From the IMG/VR virus record IMGVR_UViG_3300033233_000005: a stretch of 53,728 nt of DNA; one strand, written 5' to 3'. The stretch comes from a virus (lineage: Duplodnaviria; Heunggongvirae; Uroviricota; Caudoviricetes). This document shows, one piece after another, positions 23,405 to 46,604 of this stretch. The position numbers and the translations under genes are program-made. Every line of letters starts with the position of its first letter. The first letter of the stretch is position 1. Under the pieces are notes generated by a model. The model did no database searches, had not been told where the DNA came from, and saw only the letters and a list, made by a program, of their open reading frames with translations.

Positions 23405-23433
23405 TTGACTAATGACAGCAGAAGGTCTATAAT
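23405..23433 (+). promoter_or_regulatory. consensus sigma70 promoter of nrdJ
   Basis: TTGACT(23405-23410)-17 nt-TATAAT(23428-23433). Confidence 0.85.
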
Positions 23434-26752: not shown

Positions 26753-27343
26753 ATGACAGAATCAAGTAATCTTCCGGCTTTACGTTCCAAGTGCCAAGCC
26801 ATCACCAAGGCTGGCGTAGCATGCGATCAACCAGTCATTAGACCAGGATTCCCATTCTGCCATGCGCATATCAAATATGGCAGTGGAATGGTTAAATCGC
26901 ATGACCGGTACACGTCCGCATTGCCACTTGATCTGCAGCCACATTATACTCATCAGATGTCTGATGACCATCCACAAGACCTTAGAGAAGAGATCGCCAT
27001 GTTACGGGCAGTCATCAGGGACATATCTACCAAAATTGTTCTCCAACCAGGAGAAGACATTCCGGTAGAGAAATTCCAGAAGATTGTAACTGCCATTGAA
27101 TCAGTTGGTAGAACTGTGGAGCGCCAAGCCAAAGTTAATCCAGAGCGGGTCGTATCCATCAATAATGTGATGTCAATGATTTCCCGCGTGGTAGACATCC
27201 TGAATGAGAATATCCCTAAAGATCAGATGGATCTGAGACATAAGATAGTTAACGCAATAAATAAGCATGTGGTATCTGAACTATTGGCGTCTTCTACAGT
27301 TAATACTTTCCCAGGAATGACGCCAGATAAATCACATGAATAA
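26753..27343 (+). CDS. terS: terminase small subunit
   Basis: CQAITKAGVAC...FCHAH Zn motif, HDRYT, LREEIAMLRA; overlaps terL. Confidence 0.75.
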   Translation: MTESSNLPALRSKCQAITKAGVACDQPVIRPGFPFCHAHIKYGSGMVKSHDRYTSALPLDLQPHYTHQMSDDHPQDLREEIAMLRAVIRDISTKIVLQPGEDIPVEKFQKIVTAIESVGRTVERQAKVNPERVVSINNVMSMISRVVDILNENIPKDQMDLRHKIVNAINKHVVSELLASSTVNTFPGMTPDKSHE

Positions 27344-29027
27344 TCCACAAGATAACGTTATTGCCGATTGGCTACGTCGTGAATCTCTGCGACTGCTTGA
27401 TCCTACCACTTCCGATTGGGAAACTCAGCCGGTTCCATTAAAAGAATTTGCTGAGGACCATCTCAACATCAATCTATCTCCACGCCAATACCAGGATCTG
27501 GTTACTTTTCTAGGAGAAGATCCCATAAAGACGTTTGCTGGCGGATCGCCATATAATATGCTATGTTTATTGGCTGGTAAGGGTAGTGGCAAAGACTTCA
27601 TGGCCTCGATCGTAGTGAATTATCTTCTGTATCTACTACTATGCATGCGCAATCCGCATACTTATCTGGACTGGCCGATTGGTGAATCAATAGACATTAT
27701 TGTAGTTAGCTATTCCTCTGAGCAGACAGAATTAACCACGTTTGATAAAATCAAACAGCGAATGCGCAATTGGTTCTGGTTGAAGACCAAATATAGTATC
27801 ATAGATGGCGACCGCTACATCAATCAGAAGGGCATGCCGGTTATCCACATATTTAACGATATTATCAAGACACACCATAACATCCGTATCATAGCTGAAC
27901 ACTCAGCTAACGAATCGTACGAGGGCTATAATATCTTAGCCTGGGTCATGAGCGAGGCATCCGCATTTAAAGCCCATACTAAGGAGCGTAATGCGCAGAA
28001 GGTGTTCGCTACCCTGCGCACCTCAGCGTCCTCTCGATTCAATAACAGATGGAAGGGGATGGTGATGTCGTTCCCTCGATTCGATGAAAATACCGACTTT
28101 ACGTATCTGTTGTATGAGCAGGCCAAGAAAGGCGTAGCAGATGCAACCGGTAGAATATGGCCATCTAAGGGTGCTACGTGGGACTATAAGCCTAGCAAAT
28201 ATTATCCATCTGGTAAGTTCTTTGATTTTGAGGGACATCAAGTGCCTATTGAATTGCGGGCCGATTTTGAAGAAGACCCCGATGAATGCAGAAAGAAATA
28301 CCTTTGCATACCACCTAAGGCGGGTGCTAGAATCGTAGCCGACACTGCCATCTTGAAGGCTATTCATAGTCAGCCGCCTATCGTGACATTCGATCCATAT
28401 CTGAATGAAGAGACGAATAAGATCATGATGAAGATAGTCGGGCTAGATCGCCCCGATCTATTGACTAACAATTATTTGATCACAGTGGACTTGGGAGAGG
28501 TGAACAGTGCAGCCGCCGTATGCATATCGCACCTGGAAGAAGGAGCTGGTTATGTGCAGGATGCCTTGGGTGCATGGACTCCTAATCCAGACAAGGGTAC
28601 GGCAGTAGATCTTATAGACGTGCGCAATACGTTAAAATACTTAGCCAAGACTATTCCACGAGTCCGGGTGGCATTCGACCAGTGGCAATCTAGATTATTT
28701 AGGTCTGAACTGCAACAGGAAGGCATCAAAGTAGATGAATACCACACCAAATCTGAGGATTATTCTATATTCACCAAAGCCATGTCATTGGGTATAGCTC
28801 ATATCCTAGATGACGAGACTTTAAAGGTTCAGTTAAGTTCCTTAAAAGAAAAGGATGGTAGGACATTCTCCGATCCCAAGATATCTACCAGGAAAGATTT
28901 GGTTGACGTCACGGTGGGTGGTTTTAAGATGCTCATGGGCAAGACGGTATCGACCGATCTTGACGGAGAATTGATTGCTGGTAATCTATCAGAATTTGGT
29001 TCAGTGCTCCCAAGCCAGTCTTGGTAA
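27336..29027 (+). CDS. terL: terminase large subunit
   Basis: Walker A AGKGSGKD, Walker B-like WVMSEASAF, RNase H-like ITVDLG, VAFDQWQS, KDLVD. Confidence 0.9.
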   Translation: MNNPQDNVIADWLRRESLRLLDPTTSDWETQPVPLKEFAEDHLNINLSPRQYQDLVTFLGEDPIKTFAGGSPYNMLCLLAGKGSGKDFMASIVVNYLLYLLLCMRNPHTYLDWPIGESIDIIVVSYSSEQTELTTFDKIKQRMRNWFWLKTKYSIIDGDRYINQKGMPVIHIFNDIIKTHHNIRIIAEHSANESYEGYNILAWVMSEASAFKAHTKERNAQKVFATLRTSASSRFNNRWKGMVMSFPRFDENTDFTYLLYEQAKKGVADATGRIWPSKGATWDYKPSKYYPSGKFFDFEGHQVPIELRADFEEDPDECRKKYLCIPPKAGARIVADTAILKAIHSQPPIVTFDPYLNEETNKIMMKIVGLDRPDLLTNNYLITVDLGEVNSAAAVCISHLEEGAGYVQDALGAWTPNPDKGTAVDLIDVRNTLKYLAKTIPRVRVAFDQWQSRLFRSELQQEGIKVDEYHTKSEDYSIFTKAMSLGIAHILDDETLKVQLSSLKEKDGRTFSDPKISTRKDLVDVTVGGFKMLMGKTVSTDLDGELIAGNLSEFGSVLPSQSW

Positions 29028-35892: not shown

Positions 35893-37689
35893 ATGTTTGC
35901 TCCAGATGGCAGTGATTTAACAAATGCTCCAGATTGGCTTAAACAAGCCATAATCAGTAGAGGTTCAGCTAGTAGTGGCTTAGACGTCAAAGCTGACCTC
36001 ACATCATCTGATTCTTCCCTTAGAATACCACTACAATATCTAGATCCTCTATTTGACCAGATTCTATTAATCTTCCCGCAGGATAACCTACGGGAGCTTA
36101 ATAGGCGTCTACGCCATTATTACAAATATGATCCTTATATCAGGAGCATTGTAGACTTTCACACAGAAACTCCGCTATCGGATTTCGATCTGCGGTGCCC
36201 AGCTAATCGAGAAGTAGAGGAATACTTTCAGGACTTCAAAGATCGTAAGAATCTCTTAAATACCTTCGTCAACGTACTACGCGACTATTGGTTGCTAGGT
36301 GAGGGATTCGCTTACGGCAACTGGGATGCTGACAATAGAGAATTCTCAGAATTCGTTCAGCTCCCACCTGAGGAACTTGAAATACACTCTGCTTATATCA
36401 GCACTCAGAAAGTATACGTCATGCGGCCTAACAAAGAGGTCGCCAAAATGATGCGGTCCTTTAATCCGGCTGATACACAGGTATCAGACATTATCAGGCA
36501 TTCTCAGCCACAATTTGCCGCTGCTGTTGCTAGAAATAAGCCATTCATCCTGGATACCAATCGGCTGTTCATTATGCAGCGTGAACAGGCTGGCTATATC
36601 AATCGTGGTATTAGCCCCGTGCTAGCGGTAGTTAAGGATCTAATCTATCAGGACTTCCTAAATATGTATCGCACTACATTCATTCAGCGCCATGCGGCAC
36701 CTCTACGTTTGTTTAAGTTAGGTAGTGCAGAAAAGGGATTCATCCCCTCCAAGAAGATGTTTAGGGAATTCCGGGCACAGTTGGTGCAGGCTATTAACGA
36801 CCCTGATTTCAATTTTGTAACCCACCCATTCGTACAGGTAGAATACCACACTGGCCAAGATAAGATCCTAAACTTAATACCTATGTATGATCTAGTAAAG
36901 ACCCGGATATTTGCTGGTCTATTCGTCAGCGAAGCCGTGATCTCTGGTGAGAAGACCCCATATGCTGCCGGTGTCACGTTCATGCGCGGGCTGATGAATC
37001 GGTATCTTACCGTACGGAACATGTTGGAGATAGAGGTCCAGCGCAAGATATTCTCTCATCTGTCTAGAAAGCGTGGATTCTATATGCCCACTCAGGCCGA
37101 GACCAGCCACAGAATACGGGCTGCGCGTACTCCCGATAAGCTCATTATGCCTAAGATTATGTGGCATAAGGCCAACCTATTAGCCAACCAGCAGATACAG
37201 CAGTTGGTCATTGGCCTACGTGAGAAGGGAGAAATTCCATTCAGATTCGTAGCCGAAATGTTCGGCTGGAATATGGAGGATATCGCGCACCAGCTGGCAC
37301 GTGAGGAGAGCACTCCTGCTGACCAGGCATGGCGCAAGGTCCGGGATAAGGCCCTGGCTGACGACGAGATGTTGGCCAATAAGGTATTGAGCGGGGTCAA
37401 GTTGGACGTCGCTCTTAAGGAACAGATAGTGGCTAAATTTAAAACCGGTGATAAATCTGAAAAGGGCAAAGAAGATAAGGAGAAGAAACCAGCTAGAAGC
37501 GGGTTAACTCCTCCAGAAGTGCCTATATCCAGACCATCATTATCACCTGAAACTGAGGCTAGACCATCCGAAGTAAAGTCACCTATCCCTCCAATGCCAG
37601 GAACACCTGGGGAATCGGCTAGTAGCAAACCCAGGCCGGGTGAGGAAGGGGGAGCTGGTGCAGGTGGCGCAGCAGGAGGCACTCCGTGA
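35893..37689 (+). CDS. portal protein
   Basis: YYKYDPYIRSIVDFH, YWLLGEGFAY, VQLPPEE, RGISP.L...KDL, stem-clip-stem order, Pro/Gly-rich tail; lies between terL and the protease. Confidence 0.85.
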   Translation: MFAPDGSDLTNAPDWLKQAIISRGSASSGLDVKADLTSSDSSLRIPLQYLDPLFDQILLIFPQDNLRELNRRLRHYYKYDPYIRSIVDFHTETPLSDFDLRCPANREVEEYFQDFKDRKNLLNTFVNVLRDYWLLGEGFAYGNWDADNREFSEFVQLPPEELEIHSAYISTQKVYVMRPNKEVAKMMRSFNPADTQVSDIIRHSQPQFAAAVARNKPFILDTNRLFIMQREQAGYINRGISPVLAVVKDLIYQDFLNMYRTTFIQRHAAPLRLFKLGSAEKGFIPSKKMFREFRAQLVQAINDPDFNFVTHPFVQVEYHTGQDKILNLIPMYDLVKTRIFAGLFVSEAVISGEKTPYAAGVTFMRGLMNRYLTVRNMLEIEVQRKIFSHLSRKRGFYMPTQAETSHRIRAARTPDKLIMPKIMWHKANLLANQQIQQLVIGLREKGEIPFRFVAEMFGWNMEDIAHQLAREESTPADQAWRKVRDKALADDEMLANKVLSGVKLDVALKEQIVAKFKTGDKSEKGKEDKEKKPARSGLTPPEVPISRPSLSPETEARPSEVKSPIPPMPGTPGESASSKPRPGEEGGAGAGGAAGGTP

Positions 37690-39365: not shown

Positions 39366-39395
39366 TTGACAGGTTATACGCATAGGAGATAGAAT
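39366..39395 (+). promoter_or_regulatory. sigma70-type promoter
   Basis: TTGACA-18 nt-TAGAAT; predicted +1 falls at about ATG 39402. Confidence 0.6.
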
Positions 39396-42795: not shown

Positions 42796-43809
42796 GTGTC
42801 ACTAGGTGTAGCGGAAGTAGGTCAGTTATCGCCTAAGCAGCGTAATCAGTTCATTGAAACGCTGTATAAGGTCGCTAGCCAGACGGATACCAGCAATAAT
42901 AATGAAGGTATCGACGTCCAGGGAGCGTCCCCATCGGTGCCAACCACTGCCATGAAGGAGCTAGAAGCTCGTTTTGACGCAGAATTGGCCCGTCCGGATG
43001 GACTACGCAGAATTGCGTTTGCTCTTCATCCGGTACTGAAGCGGCGTTTGGACTACCACGCGATCGGACGCAATAACATCCTGGTTGTCGATGAGATAAC
43101 TACGGGTGACGTGCCCTTCTACGATGTAGACCTGCCAGAATTCGGGGCAGTCTTCCTCGCGGGTCGCGGCGAGCCGACACGGGTATTCTCGAACGTTAAG
43201 CGTATCCAGTTCCCTACCTCTGCGCTGGCTGCTGTACAGCAGGTTGCGTATGAGGAAATCACGATCAGACGGTACCCCGTCTTTGACCGTGCCAAGGAGC
43301 GTGTCGCGATCTCCATTGCTATTGGAGAGGACGATGCAATCTTGGGAACTGGTGGTGTAGTTGACACGGCCTCTGGCCTGGTCAACACGGTGGTGTCTGC
43401 GACTTCACTGTCCAGACCCGTTATCGCGGAAATTGCGAAGCGGATTGTCAATAACCAGCTACCGTTTGCGACTCTCCTGATGCATCCCGTGCAGTATGCG
43501 GAAATCTGGAAGTGGTCGTCTAACGAGCTAGACCAGGTAACCCTAAATAAGGTCGTTGAGACCGGAATGGTGGGTTCCTACCTTGGCGCTCGCTTGCTAA
43601 TCAGCACGCGGGTTGACCGGGATAAGGTCTATGGATTGACAACTGCCGATAAGCTGGGACGTCTACCGGAAAGGAAGGCCGTCGAAGTCAAGATCTTTGA
43701 CAACGTGCCTCACCTGAAATACGACATCCTGGCGTGGGAGCAGATCGGAGTGGGTATTTTCAACACGGCCGGGGTCGCGAGAGCCGACATTCCAGCAGGC
43801 ACCATTTAA
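42796..43809 (+). CDS. major capsid protein (HK97 fold)
   Basis: RLDY..IGR...VVDE...GDVPFYD.D; RRYPVFDRAKER...GEDD; LLMHP..YAEI; G..LGARL; WEQIGVG. Confidence 0.88.
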   Translation: MSLGVAEVGQLSPKQRNQFIETLYKVASQTDTSNNNEGIDVQGASPSVPTTAMKELEARFDAELARPDGLRRIAFALHPVLKRRLDYHAIGRNNILVVDEITTGDVPFYDVDLPEFGAVFLAGRGEPTRVFSNVKRIQFPTSALAAVQQVAYEEITIRRYPVFDRAKERVAISIAIGEDDAILGTGGVVDTASGLVNTVVSATSLSRPVIAEIAKRIVNNQLPFATLLMHPVQYAEIWKWSSNELDQVTLNKVVETGMVGSYLGARLLISTRVDRDKVYGLTTADKLGRLPERKAVEVKIFDNVPHLKYDILAWEQIGVGIFNTAGVARADIPAGTI

Positions 43810-43844: not shown

Positions 43845-43868
43845 GGGGCGGGCCGAAAGGCCCGCCCC
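43845..43868 (+). terminator. GC-rich hairpin after the MCP gene
   Basis: GGGGCGGGCC-GAAA-GGCCCGCCCC, 10-bp perfect stem; U-tract absent. Confidence 0.6.
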
Positions 43869-43927: not shown

Positions 43928-43956
43928 TTGACTACTTGCTGTGCGTATGCTATAGT
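43928..43956 (+). promoter_or_regulatory. sigma70-type promoter with extended -10
   Basis: TTGACT-17 nt-(TGc)TATAGT. Confidence 0.8.
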
Positions 43957-44112: not shown

Positions 44113-44325
44113 ATGCCACCAAAAGACACCACTCCTAACGATTTCTTGAATTTAATCGGAGGGATACATGAGATATCTCTCAAAATCAAAGCTAGATTGG
44201 TCACTTCTCAAGATGGTAAGAATCTCAATGATGCAATCGGCCTATTTCATCAAAAATATGGTACTTATCCTTCTATGGCCAGTTACTGGCTAGGTCAAGC
44301 TGATCGAGTGATTAAACAGAGGTGA
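44113..44325 (+). CDS. hypothetical protein
   Basis: GTGA overlap with the next gene. Confidence 0.5.
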   Translation: MPPKDTTPNDFLNLIGGIHEISLKIKARLVTSQDGKNLNDAIGLFHQKYGTYPSMASYWLGQADRVIKQR

Positions 44326-44564
44326 CTATGAAGAAACAAGAGACCATTGACGTCACATTGATCACGTTGGGTTCTGAGAAACAGGGTTGGATTCCTCCCC
44401 AAAAGATGTACCAGGAATTTACTACCAACCTATTGAGGGTGTTAAATGGTGGTGGGGGAGTGATAGTGACCGATCCGTTCGTAAGTATCAAGACATTGAA
44501 AATCCCCAAGAAGGGGATACTAGTAGCAAAAGGTCAAGAGATTACAGAATACAACATTTCCTAA
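44322..44564 (+). CDS. free-standing portal-clip-like protein
   Basis: 18/42 ungapped identities to the portal segment at 36709-36834. Confidence 0.75.
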   Translation: MTMKKQETIDVTLITLGSEKQGWIPPQKMYQEFTTNLLRVLNGGGGVIVTDPFVSIKTLKIPKKGILVAKGQEITEYNIS

Positions 44565-44578
44565 GGAGAATAACAAAA

Positions 44579-45409
44579 ATGGATGAAATTAAGATGGTAA
44601 AAATACACAACAAAACCAACACTGTCGTGATGATCGACAGCATGAGTGGCTATGGTGGCACTATCGGACCTTTCCAGACTGCAACGATGACTCAAGAACA
44701 TTATCACAAGCACATGGATGTGCTTGGAACATTGATAGCACGCGGGCTGCTCCAGGTATTAGGCGAGAGCGATGTCGTACCTAAGGTGCCAGTTGCTCCA
44801 AAGAAAAAATCTCCTGACGCTGTTAGCTTTATCAAGCGTCCAGAAGTTAAGGAAGATGAGGAGCCTGCGGTATCCGGTATTAAGGGTGGCCCAGATCAGG
44901 TTGATGATCTGGATGAAGCGGTTAGAGACCGTGATATCACCGAAGATGATGATCTTGAACAGGTAGGCGAACAGGTGGTTAAGGCCGGTAGAAATAAGAG
45001 TAAGGCAGTCCCTCTTATCGCTACAAAACCTGGTAAAAAGCCTCTCATAGTCAAGTCGGATAAGACCACATTGGCCTTGGACGATGATGATGACACTGGC
45101 AGCATTGTCGTACCTTCTATGGTACCCGGCAAGGCCAGAGTCAAGTCCATCACCGATATGACCGATGAGGACAGGGCTAAGCTTGCGGCTGAGACCGACA
45201 AGGTTTTAGAGAATCTAGCCAAGGAGAACAAGCTGCTTAGAGTAATTAACAACTATCATGGTTGGGATTATAATAAGCGCTTGCAGTTCATCACCAATAC
45301 TGAAGATGTGGACATCCTGAAGCAAATCATGCGGATGGAGAAAAAGGCCACTCTAGTCGATTCTGCCCGGAAGCGGATCAAGAAAATCACTGAGGAGGCT
45401 GTTGAATGA
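44579..45409 (+). CDS. hypothetical head/neck-region protein
   Basis: AAGGAG SD at ATG 44579; acidic disordered centre; C-terminal EDVDIL...EKK...SARKRI helical motif. Confidence 0.7.
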   Translation: MDEIKMVKIHNKTNTVVMIDSMSGYGGTIGPFQTATMTQEHYHKHMDVLGTLIARGLLQVLGESDVVPKVPVAPKKKSPDAVSFIKRPEVKEDEEPAVSGIKGGPDQVDDLDEAVRDRDITEDDDLEQVGEQVVKAGRNKSKAVPLIATKPGKKPLIVKSDKTTLALDDDDDTGSIVVPSMVPGKARVKSITDMTDEDRAKLAAETDKVLENLAKENKLLRVINNYHGWDYNKRLQFITNTEDVDILKQIMRMEKKATLVDSARKRIKKITEEAVE

Positions 45410-45876
45410 CGAACGATCAGGTACGGATAAAGGTATATAGTCGTACCCGCGAGGGAACGATTGTATTCTGGAACACCGATGTTCTTAGTAAGGAACAGAA
45501 GGAGAACATGTCCATCCTGATCAAGCAGATGGGAGAGACCAATTGGGTCCCTGCTCGCACGGCGCAGCCAAATACTGCGCTAATGCGTCCCATGGATTAC
45601 AATGTCATCTCTACCGTTATGATCTTGCATGACAAGAGCATAGACGAACACACTCCGTTTGATCTGCAAATGTCATTTGGCAAGACTGAAGTCAGGAATG
45701 CTAGTATCACCATAGAGGACAAGGCAGCCCATACTAGCTACGTGCGTCCTAAAAAGACCACCAGTGGTGAGTACGCTATGCCTATCACTAGCTCGGACAT
45801 GATCACTCTAGAGGATGGAACACGCGGAATACCGGTTATCATAGTCGGTGATCTGCGCAAAAAGGAAGACGCCTAA
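45406..45876 (+). CDS. hypothetical protein
   Basis: GAGGAGG SD. Confidence 0.65.
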   Translation: MTNDQVRIKVYSRTREGTIVFWNTDVLSKEQKENMSILIKQMGETNWVPARTAQPNTALMRPMDYNVISTVMILHDKSIDEHTPFDLQMSFGKTEVRNASITIEDKAAHTSYVRPKKTTSGEYAMPITSSDMITLEDGTRGIPVIIVGDLRKKEDA

Positions 45877-46604
45877 TGGCAGTTAGCGTTCAGTGGGCCG
45901 TACCTTCGGGTCTGACTCCTAACTTTAGTAAGACCATAATATTTAGGTCGCAGCAGGAGCAGCTGGGATATGAGAAATTGGCAGCTATCGATACATTTAA
46001 CACAGATGGTTCGCCAAACACTATATTCCTGGACGTCACTGGAACCAATAACAACTACTATGTCATCAGGTTCTTCGATAACAATGTAGAGTTCAATGAC
46101 TTCACCCTGGGGTTCCATTCGCTCAGCCCCAGGGAGAAGCGGCTTATTCTATATATTAAATCATGGATTCCGGAAATATTGAAGCCTGACCTAACCGATT
46201 TCGATATAGCCTTTTCATTGCGGTTGGCGATAAACGATTTCGTCATCCATCCACCTGAGACCCCGGAGTTTGCCGATATAGATTCCTTCCCTGCTACCTA
46301 TGAGCAGTTCTTGATAGTCGGTACCCAGGTAAAATTGGCTCAATTGAAATATTTGAAGCTCGGTATACGTGACTTCTCGTATTCTGATATGGGATTCTCA
46401 TTGAATGTCCAGCGTGGTGAAAAGATCGCCAAGGCCATAGAAGATTTGAATAGACAGTGGATTAACACGATTGATAAAGCCAAGTGGAATTTCATCAGCC
46501 AGGGATTGGGCCTTGGTACCATACCATTGCCAATCAGCATAGGTGGGAGCATCTCCAGGGGTGTGCTGAACGTTCTAGACTTGTTCACTGCGATGGGCAG
46601 ATAG
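45876..46604 (+). CDS. head-tail adaptor/neck protein (putative)
   Basis: Fn3-like N-terminus; AINDF..HPP.T; DFSYSDMGFSL; follows the MCP. Confidence 0.6.
   Translation: MAVSVQWAVPSGLTPNFSKTIIFRSQQEQLGYEKLAAIDTFNTDGSPNTIFLDVTGTNNNYYVIRFFDNNVEFNDFTLGFHSLSPREKRLILYIKSWIPEILKPDLTDFDIAFSLRLAINDFVIHPPETPEFADIDSFPATYEQFLIVGTQVKLAQLKYLKLGIRDFSYSDMGFSLNVQRGEKIAKAIEDLNRQWINTIDKAKWNFISQGLGLGTIPLPISIGGSISRGVLNVLDLFTAMGR

Follow-up and report, generated by a model that had tools for sequence, protein, structure and literature searches.

Genomic Setting of the Small Gene

The window (the whole stretch of DNA analysed, 53,728 nucleotides from a virus of the Caudoviricetes, IMG/VR record IMGVR_UViG_3300033233_000005) contains, downstream of the major capsid protein (MCP) gene, a small gene for a 78-residue protein, P0002, which resembles the clip domain of a phage portal. 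The features at and around this locus, together with the TerL gene, are as follows.

27336–29027: TerL
42796–43809, plus strand: MCP gene, the upstream neighbour (phrog_2522, E 8e-29; 68–69% identical to the MCPs of the related contigs L001 and L005)
43845–43868, no strand assigned: hairpin with a 10-bp all-GC stem and a GAAA loop, just past the end of the MCP gene
43928–43956, plus strand: sigma-70-like promoter match, TTGACT-17-(TG)TATAGT (consensus match, 10/12 with TG)
44113–44325, plus strand: P0003, a 70-aa ORF between the promoter-like site and the small gene
44328–44564, plus strand: P0002 gene, 78-aa stand-alone clip-like protein (ORF and RBS, five further diverged homologues, family invariants)
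44579–45409, plus strand: P0058, 276 aa, head/neck-module protein and downstream neighbour, with homologues in L001 and L005
44579–46604: neck-module proteins (P0058 and the products of 45406–45876 and 45876–46604)

The ORF that the sequence-only reading had placed at 44322–44564 is a real gene, for which ATG 44328, with AGAGG 5 nt upstream, is the preferred start; the alternative start, GTG 44322, overlaps the stop of P0003. In the window, the MCP gene is followed by the all-GC hairpin, the promoter-like site, P0003, P0002, P0058, and further head/neck genes. A search for homologues next to MCP genes had been proposed as a check, and L005 (MCP 69% identical) has one in this place: its MCP gene is followed by a comparable hairpin (439–462), a 102-aa ORF, the small gene, whose start overlaps the preceding stop, and the P0058 homologue. 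The same slot is empty in L001 (MCP 68% identical, 134-kb contig), where the P0058 homologue stands directly after the MCP gene and no small gene was found within 10 kb of the portal. Furthermore, the small gene of L007/L010 lies among early-type small genes, beside genes for a DUF4031 protein and a kinase-like protein, its neighbours resembling genes at the start of this window, and that of L008/L011 and of two 13-kb contigs has early-type small genes around it too, with DUF932 and GP88 nearby. At a GC content of 0.39–0.42, the insert is richer in AT than its neighbours, the P0058 gene (0.47) and the MCP gene (0.54). Patchy presence among syntenic relatives (present in L005, absent from the L001 slot) and deviating composition, as expected of a moron, were both found, and no plus-strand terminator of its own was found in the 14 nt after the stop at 44564. 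The small gene is thus patchy in occurrence and mobile in position, like an accessory gene.

The all-GC hairpin is probably a conserved terminator or an mRNA-stabilising element after the most highly expressed gene; the stem sequences of the hairpins in the window and L005 differ. A strong promoter belonging to the small gene itself had also been claimed: a TTGACT-17-TATAGT site with TG is indeed present at 43928–43956, as a consensus match and nothing further, and L005 has no promoter-like site of this kind. TTGAC[TA] sigma-70-like sites with 17–18-nt spacers occur at 23405, 29354, 39366, 43928, and 48625, in or beside intergenic gaps, ahead of both non-structural and structural genes (the latter at 39366 and 48625), which suggests that one promoter type is used throughout the phage. 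The promoter-like site at 43928 fits this style and says nothing on early versus late expression.

P0003 has no Pfam or PHROG relatives and is unrelated to the 102-aa ORF at the same position in L005, the C-terminal half of which is highly conserved between L005 and L009. Downstream, 14 nt with an AAGGAG RBS separate the stop at 44564 from the ATG of P0058 at 44579. A TTG-started frame at 44387 was rejected as the start of P0058, as the L005 homologue begins two bases after the small-gene stop. P0058 carries once the conserved C-terminal module NY.GW....L.FI, which is found twice in its L001 homologue P0057 (18710–20374), a Gln/Pro-rich protein of 554 aa; P0058 has an acidic/Lys-rich linker instead.

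Portal Protein and Assignment of Its Clip

The clip assignment required a structural view of the portal protein encoded in the window, the relevant parts of which are listed below.

35893–37689, plus strand: portal gene P0001, 598 aa (match to phrog_16240 "portal protein", E 7e-42; AF2 model; fold matches to solved portals)
36700–36873, plus strand: portal clip domain, about residues 270–327 (model topology between stem helices 242–268 and 328–342; clip definition of PMC4493910)
36709–36843, plus strand: portal stretch homologous to P0002, within the clip domain

The AF2 model of the portal, built on 44 relatives, has a pLDDT of 75.5 and matches the solved portals of lambda, P23-45, G20c, JBD30, HFTV1, and T4 with E about 1e-10 in Foldseek and Z 16–20 in VIA-align. 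Its elements follow the order helix 242–268, strand 271–276, helix 287–302, strand 314–319, helix 328–342, a short loop, and a long helix 357–394. In T4 gp20, the clip is a three-strand-plus-helix unit that joins two stem helices; it is exposed outside the capsid, where the packaging ATPase gp17 and the neck protein gp13 dock, and no other part of the portal carries a main-chain inter-subunit sheet (PMC4493910). Interpolation from the aligned ranges (model 64–485, gp20 chain 70–516) places the T4 clip, residues 279–358, at roughly 261–336 of the model, in agreement with the assignment to about 270–327. The model therefore supports the earlier proposal, for which a portal model had been named as the check, that the stretch matching P0002 is the clip, the predicted strand–helix–strand unit between two stem helices. 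PDB sequence searches with the portal profile or sequence matched no solved portal, and the clip assignment consequently rests on model topology and fold matches. The closest match of the portal in a cultured phage is gp14 of Bacillus phage G (26%), and scans of IMG/VR, whether the portal or the family alignment was the query, confirmed nothing.

Several related portals contain inteins in this region. One intein family, which starts with CFS/CLS, ends in ...VVITGQ with Ser as the next residue, and carries a LAGLIDADG domain (PF14528), was found in the portals P0008, P0012, P0028, and P0023 at two sites ten residues apart, equivalent to about 36691–36726 of the window. Site one follows FIQRH, at the junction of stem helix and clip, and corresponds to H267|S268, and site two, in P0023, lies inside the conserved clip motif LG|S, at G277|S278. 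A duplicated clip in the intein-bearing P0023 was considered and rejected, the intein simply sitting 10 residues further in. The portals P0039 and P0042 have a different, second intein near a conserved HTE/HS motif in the N-terminal part, at about residue 90–98 of the window portal. The portal of the window itself has no intein.

Homology of P0002 to the Portal Clip

Two parts can be distinguished in P0002.

44358–44492, plus strand: clip-homologous core, residues 11–55 (BLASTP against the portal; column comparison with 53 portals)
44493–44561, plus strand: C-terminal part specific to the family, [LI]-P60 and then a predicted beta-hairpin (alignments; single-sequence AF2 model)

The ungapped alignment of P0002 to a portal peptide with 18/42 identical residues, noticed at the outset, was borne out by BLASTP, in which residues 11–55 align with portal residues 273–317 (18/45 identical, 64% positives, E 4e-10). 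A profile of the small-protein family searched against all six-frame ORFs of the window matched the ORF itself (E 5e-35), portal residues 274–320 (E 1e-14), and nothing else, so the similarity is far beyond chance. These comparisons show that P0002 is homologous to the clip segment of a bona fide portal. Equally, they show that P0002 is not itself a portal protein: of its 78 residues only 11–55 are aligned, the family profile covers only about residues 271–320 of the portal, and a protein without stem, wing, and crown could not form a DNA channel.

The core of P0002 consists of a strand, a G-x4-G-x2-P loop, a helix, a strand, and a PFV strand. The C-terminal part has no counterpart in portals, which run instead into the channel loop and the second stem helix. 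In a single-sequence AF2 model of modest confidence (pLDDT about 65), strand 8–13, helix 25–41, and strand 43–48 are followed by a hairpin at 63–76, made of strands 63–68 and 71–76, and no stem helices are present. With this 78-residue model as the query, a wide fold search by VIA-align gave a best Z of only 4.0, and Foldseek on the PDB gave no match with E below 0.9. The ESM Atlas yielded no usable match, the record of P0002 itself being poorly modelled there. For a model of this length and pLDDT, such outcomes carry no information either way.

Searches of Pfam, PHROG, and PADLOC with P0002 and the small family, at E up to 1, returned no family, the sole exception being a weak match of one small-family member to a portal PHROG; routine annotation consequently misses P0002. 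The small gene region has no DNA or protein match in the cultured-phage collection, and a word-indexed protein search with P0002 as the query found only P0002. The sequence-only reading knew of no description of such a protein, and our literature search likewise found none of a free-standing clip protein or a clip decoy. P0002 is a known domain in a new autonomous form, and the function discussed below is entirely inferred.

A Rare Family of Free-Standing Clip-like Proteins

An exhaustive HMMER search over 1.84 billion representatives identified five full-length free-standing relatives of P0002, namely P0060 (87 aa), P0062 (82 aa), P0063 (96 aa), P0064 (133 aa), and P0065 (114 aa), together with a truncated relative, P0066. 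One extra member, P0067, came from the word-indexed protein search with the family profile, and a scan of metagenome contigs for the small family returned only contigs already known. All relatives come from sediment-type metagenomes. The family is rare, comprising about six lineages, and its phages are uncultured. Two candidates, P0059 and P0061, were rejected as repeat proteins matching by composition, and P0066 was not counted separately, since it represents the P0060 gene again, in a relative that is 85% identical. The odd C-terminus of P0066 was dismissed as a fold-back assembly artefact at a contig end: positions 814–861 of L009, a contig of 863 bp, are an inverted copy of the sequence just upstream.

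The relatives are 30–41% identical to P0002, have total lengths of 78–133 aa, including P0002, and lack stem and wing. Seven residues are invariant in the family (L14, G15, G20, P23, F31, F51, and P60 in P0002 numbering), the first five of them in 6/6 members of the family alignment. P0002 contains both family signatures: the motif L-G-[SD]-x2-[KQR]-G-[FWY]-[IV]-P, followed by a helix with a conserved F and L, and the strand [IV]-[TN]-[HD]-[PA]-F-[VL]-[ST], followed by five residues, [LI]-P, and a further strand. With the family profile, a match at the clip was obtained in every one of the 53 related portals (E 1e-17 to 1e-5). A comparison of columns with these portals showed that the portal-invariant G277, G282, and P285 and the near-invariant F293, L297, T310, P312, and F313 are kept in the small family, as is the hydrophobic pattern of the three clip strands. 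P270, K275, the D303–P304 loop, and D323–K324, the portal's entry to the channel loop, are lost, and both stem helices, the channel loop, and the ND-PDF loop are missing. The small family has gained the invariant P60, at whose position portals have H/Q-D-K, and one further conserved strand. The exposed face of the clip helix is conserved neither inside the small family nor in comparison with portals.

The C-terminal tails vary, being Lys-rich in P0060, helical in P0064, and absent from P0002; P0062 and P0065 end in a common PW[WY]KRL[FL] tail that the other members lack. The clip-like core thus appears to be combined with different tails, which hints at additional or different activities. Such wide variation in the tails would be expected if the clip-like core were a re-used fold serving only as a scaffold, with the job lying elsewhere, for example in nucleic-acid binding by a basic tail or in a minor structural role in the head or neck; the position of the gene inside the head-neck module, tightly packed with the next gene in the window and in L005, would fit such a role as well. 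However, it is the clip-like core and its loop, and not the tails, that are conserved in the family, P0002 has no tail at all, and a gene for an essential structural part would hardly be missing from the L001 slot. We consider a mere scaffold to be unlikely.

Age, Origin, and Selection

P0002 and the portal segment of the window share 54% nucleotide identity, and their third codon positions are identical at 17/42, which is near saturation. A maximum-likelihood tree of 57 clip columns, with 53 portals included, groups the six small proteins in a single clade with support of 100/100, and the same clade was recovered on the 40 shared core columns with support of 77/86 and in 80% of bootstrap trees. 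A single origin of the small proteins, apart from portal clips, is favoured by these trees rather than proven, because the segment is short. Identity to the clip of this phage's portal is 40% for P0002 and 50–51% for P0060, P0063, and P0065. In view of its divergence, its place in the small-protein clade, and the closer resemblance of its relatives to this portal, P0002 is an old paralogue and not a copy tuned to its own portal, and the earlier description of it as a mimic of the phage's own portal does not hold in this respect.

This result also bears on the possibility that P0002 co-assembles with or caps the portal, its strands pairing with the clip strands of a portal protomer as in the strand exchange between neighbouring subunits. 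A protein of this kind could be an assembly chaperone, a shield of the monomer, or a poison acting in dominant-negative fashion on portal rings that belong to co-infecting relatives. The preserved hydrophobic pattern of all three clip strands would suit such pairing, and the patchy distribution would suit a gene of competition between phages. On the other hand, the C-terminal hairpin of the AF2 model could fill the open sheet edges within the molecule, and no discrimination between self and non-self is visible, given that its relatives resemble the portal of this phage at least as closely as P0002 does. Capping is therefore judged rather improbable, about on a par with the scaffold explanation.

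The selection on the small gene was assessed from L005 and L009, whose DNA is 85% identical. Over 44 codons of the small gene, nine non-synonymous and seven synonymous changes gave a dN/dS of 0.32, a value of weak power at this number of codons; family conservation is the stronger argument for selection. All of these changes fall at variable positions. The fragment of the neighbouring MCP gene has 18 synonymous and 0 non-synonymous changes between the same two contigs. In a second DNA sequencing run, the MCP and P0058 genes were partly covered by short contigs, and the small gene by none.

A decaying duplication had been raised as an outcome that would undo the proposal. The rarity of the family and the inteins that related portals bear at the clip boundary and inside LG|S, which would make the clip a recombination hot spot, could be taken to mean that P0002 is a dead leftover from a portal gene duplicated in part, perhaps left behind by the traffic of inteins or homing endonucleases at the clip. 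Against this stand the intact ORFs with RBS in about six diverged lineages sharing the seven invariants, the conserved family-specific extension with its invariant P60, the grouping of the small proteins in one clade, the dN/dS value, and the retention of the gene's position in L005 while the MCP diverged to 69%. A dead remnant is thus highly improbable, and the data support P0002 as a folded, selected, stand-alone paralogue of the portal clip.

Proposed Mode of Action

Based on the parts that P0002 has lost and kept, a possible mode of action was considered in which the protein acts as a soluble competitor for a partner that docks on the clip, either the terminase or neck of the phage or a portal-sensing immune protein of the host. 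We regard this reading, drawn from sequence comparison, as a serious possibility that falls slightly short of probable. The small family has lost the parts that build the ring and the DNA channel and retains the beta-alpha-beta-beta core of the clip with its best-conserved loop, LGSxxKG[FWY]IP. The added C-terminal beta-hairpin plausibly closes the sheet, which would let the protein exist alone. As a soluble copy of the outer docking face of the clip, P0002 could then occupy a protein that otherwise docks on the portal clip.

Two classes of partner may be envisaged, and they are about equally likely. If the partner is the phage's own packaging ATPase or a neck/adaptor protein, P0002 may be a timing device or a holding chaperone at the portal vertex. 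This class is favoured by the location of the gene in the head-neck module in two lineages, with hardly any space between it and the gene that follows. Of the elements shared with the portal clip, the loop that follows strand one is the best conserved, and it may correspond, by positional analogy only, to the tip of the T4 clip (N291–K296) that touches gp17. If the partner is instead a host immune sensor of portal clips, P0002 may be an anti-defence decoy, a candidate additional to the packaging decoy or regulator, the portal-assembly chaperone, and the inhibitor of rivals named in the sequence-only reading. SpbK's N-terminal domain binds to the helices of the clip in assembled YonE, and EcAvs4 touches portal monomers at the stem, clip, and wing (PMC12847820); the assembly of RAZR takes place around portal rings (PMC13017515). 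A clip copy in monomeric form could soak up SpbK-like or Avs4-like sensors, denying them the monomeric portal or the 12-fold platform; for the small family, this specific form of the decoy, argued by analogy with those systems, is viewed as improbable. As the exposed clip-helix face lacks conservation, a ligand on a shared helix face, as for SpbK, is not obvious. A decoy for Avs4 is further disfavoured by P0002 being the clip alone, without the stem and wing that Avs4 also contacts. If true, the decoy reading would mean that a phage has turned one of its own structural proteins into an anti-defence decoy, the first of its kind.

Two considerations weigh against mimicry in general. Most of the retained residues may be mere determinants of the fold, and a competitor of the phage's own terminase or neck would be costly to the phage unless its affinity or timing were tuned. 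A complex prediction of portal residues 236–346 with the small family gave a score of 0.00, which, obtained without controls, is no evidence on binding either way.

As the hub of the portal vertex, the clip is where the packaging motor and then the neck dock, and at least two kinds of bacterial immune sensors read it. A natural clip that folds independently and is under selection would be a ready-made probe for clip contacts. As a competitor for a docking partner, a free clip would give a phage a new means of timing or protecting packaging, or would constitute a new class of immune decoy. P0002 also shows that a sub-domain of a core virion protein can become an accessory gene.

Comparison with Known Systems

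The clips of known portals, such as T4 gp20 (residues 279–358), SPP1 gp6, P22 gp1, phi29 gp10, and SPbeta YonE, have the same order of elements as P0002. P0002 is homologous to the clip of its own portal family and keeps the portal-invariant Gly/Pro loop (PMC4493910). In contrast to these domains, P0002 is free-standing, lacks the stem, wing, crown, channel loop, and ND-PDF loop, and has a C-terminal hairpin of its own.

With respect to portal-sensing immunity (SpbK–YonE, Avs4–portal, and RAZR–portal, and DSAD1 versus DSR2), a free clip could in principle occupy the sensors without offering the 12-fold platform of a portal. Within the papers searchable, the literature on portal-sensing systems reports no decoy made from the trigger's own domain, and PADLOC gave no match to P0002, as expected for a phage gene. 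P0002 also has no Pfam, PHROG, or PADLOC membership that would join it to the satellite packaging-interference proteins Ppi, Rpp, Sid, and CpmA/B, for some of which these libraries may lack models.

CpmB of SaPI1 and similar satellite proteins imitate an assembly contact of the helper phage. P0002 would be like CpmB, in mode of action only, in presenting a contact surface of a genuine assembly component. CpmB is encoded by a satellite, is directed against the helper, and concerns capsid size, whereas P0002 is phage-encoded and portal-derived and has no sequence relation to CpmB. MicroProteins of plants and animals are single-domain paralogues that titrate their multi-domain relatives or the partners of these. 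The concept comes from eukaryotic transcription factors and, to our knowledge, has not been described for phage portals. P0002 would resemble microProteins, again in mode of action only: it too is a short paralogue, reduced to the interaction domain of a larger protein that oligomerises.
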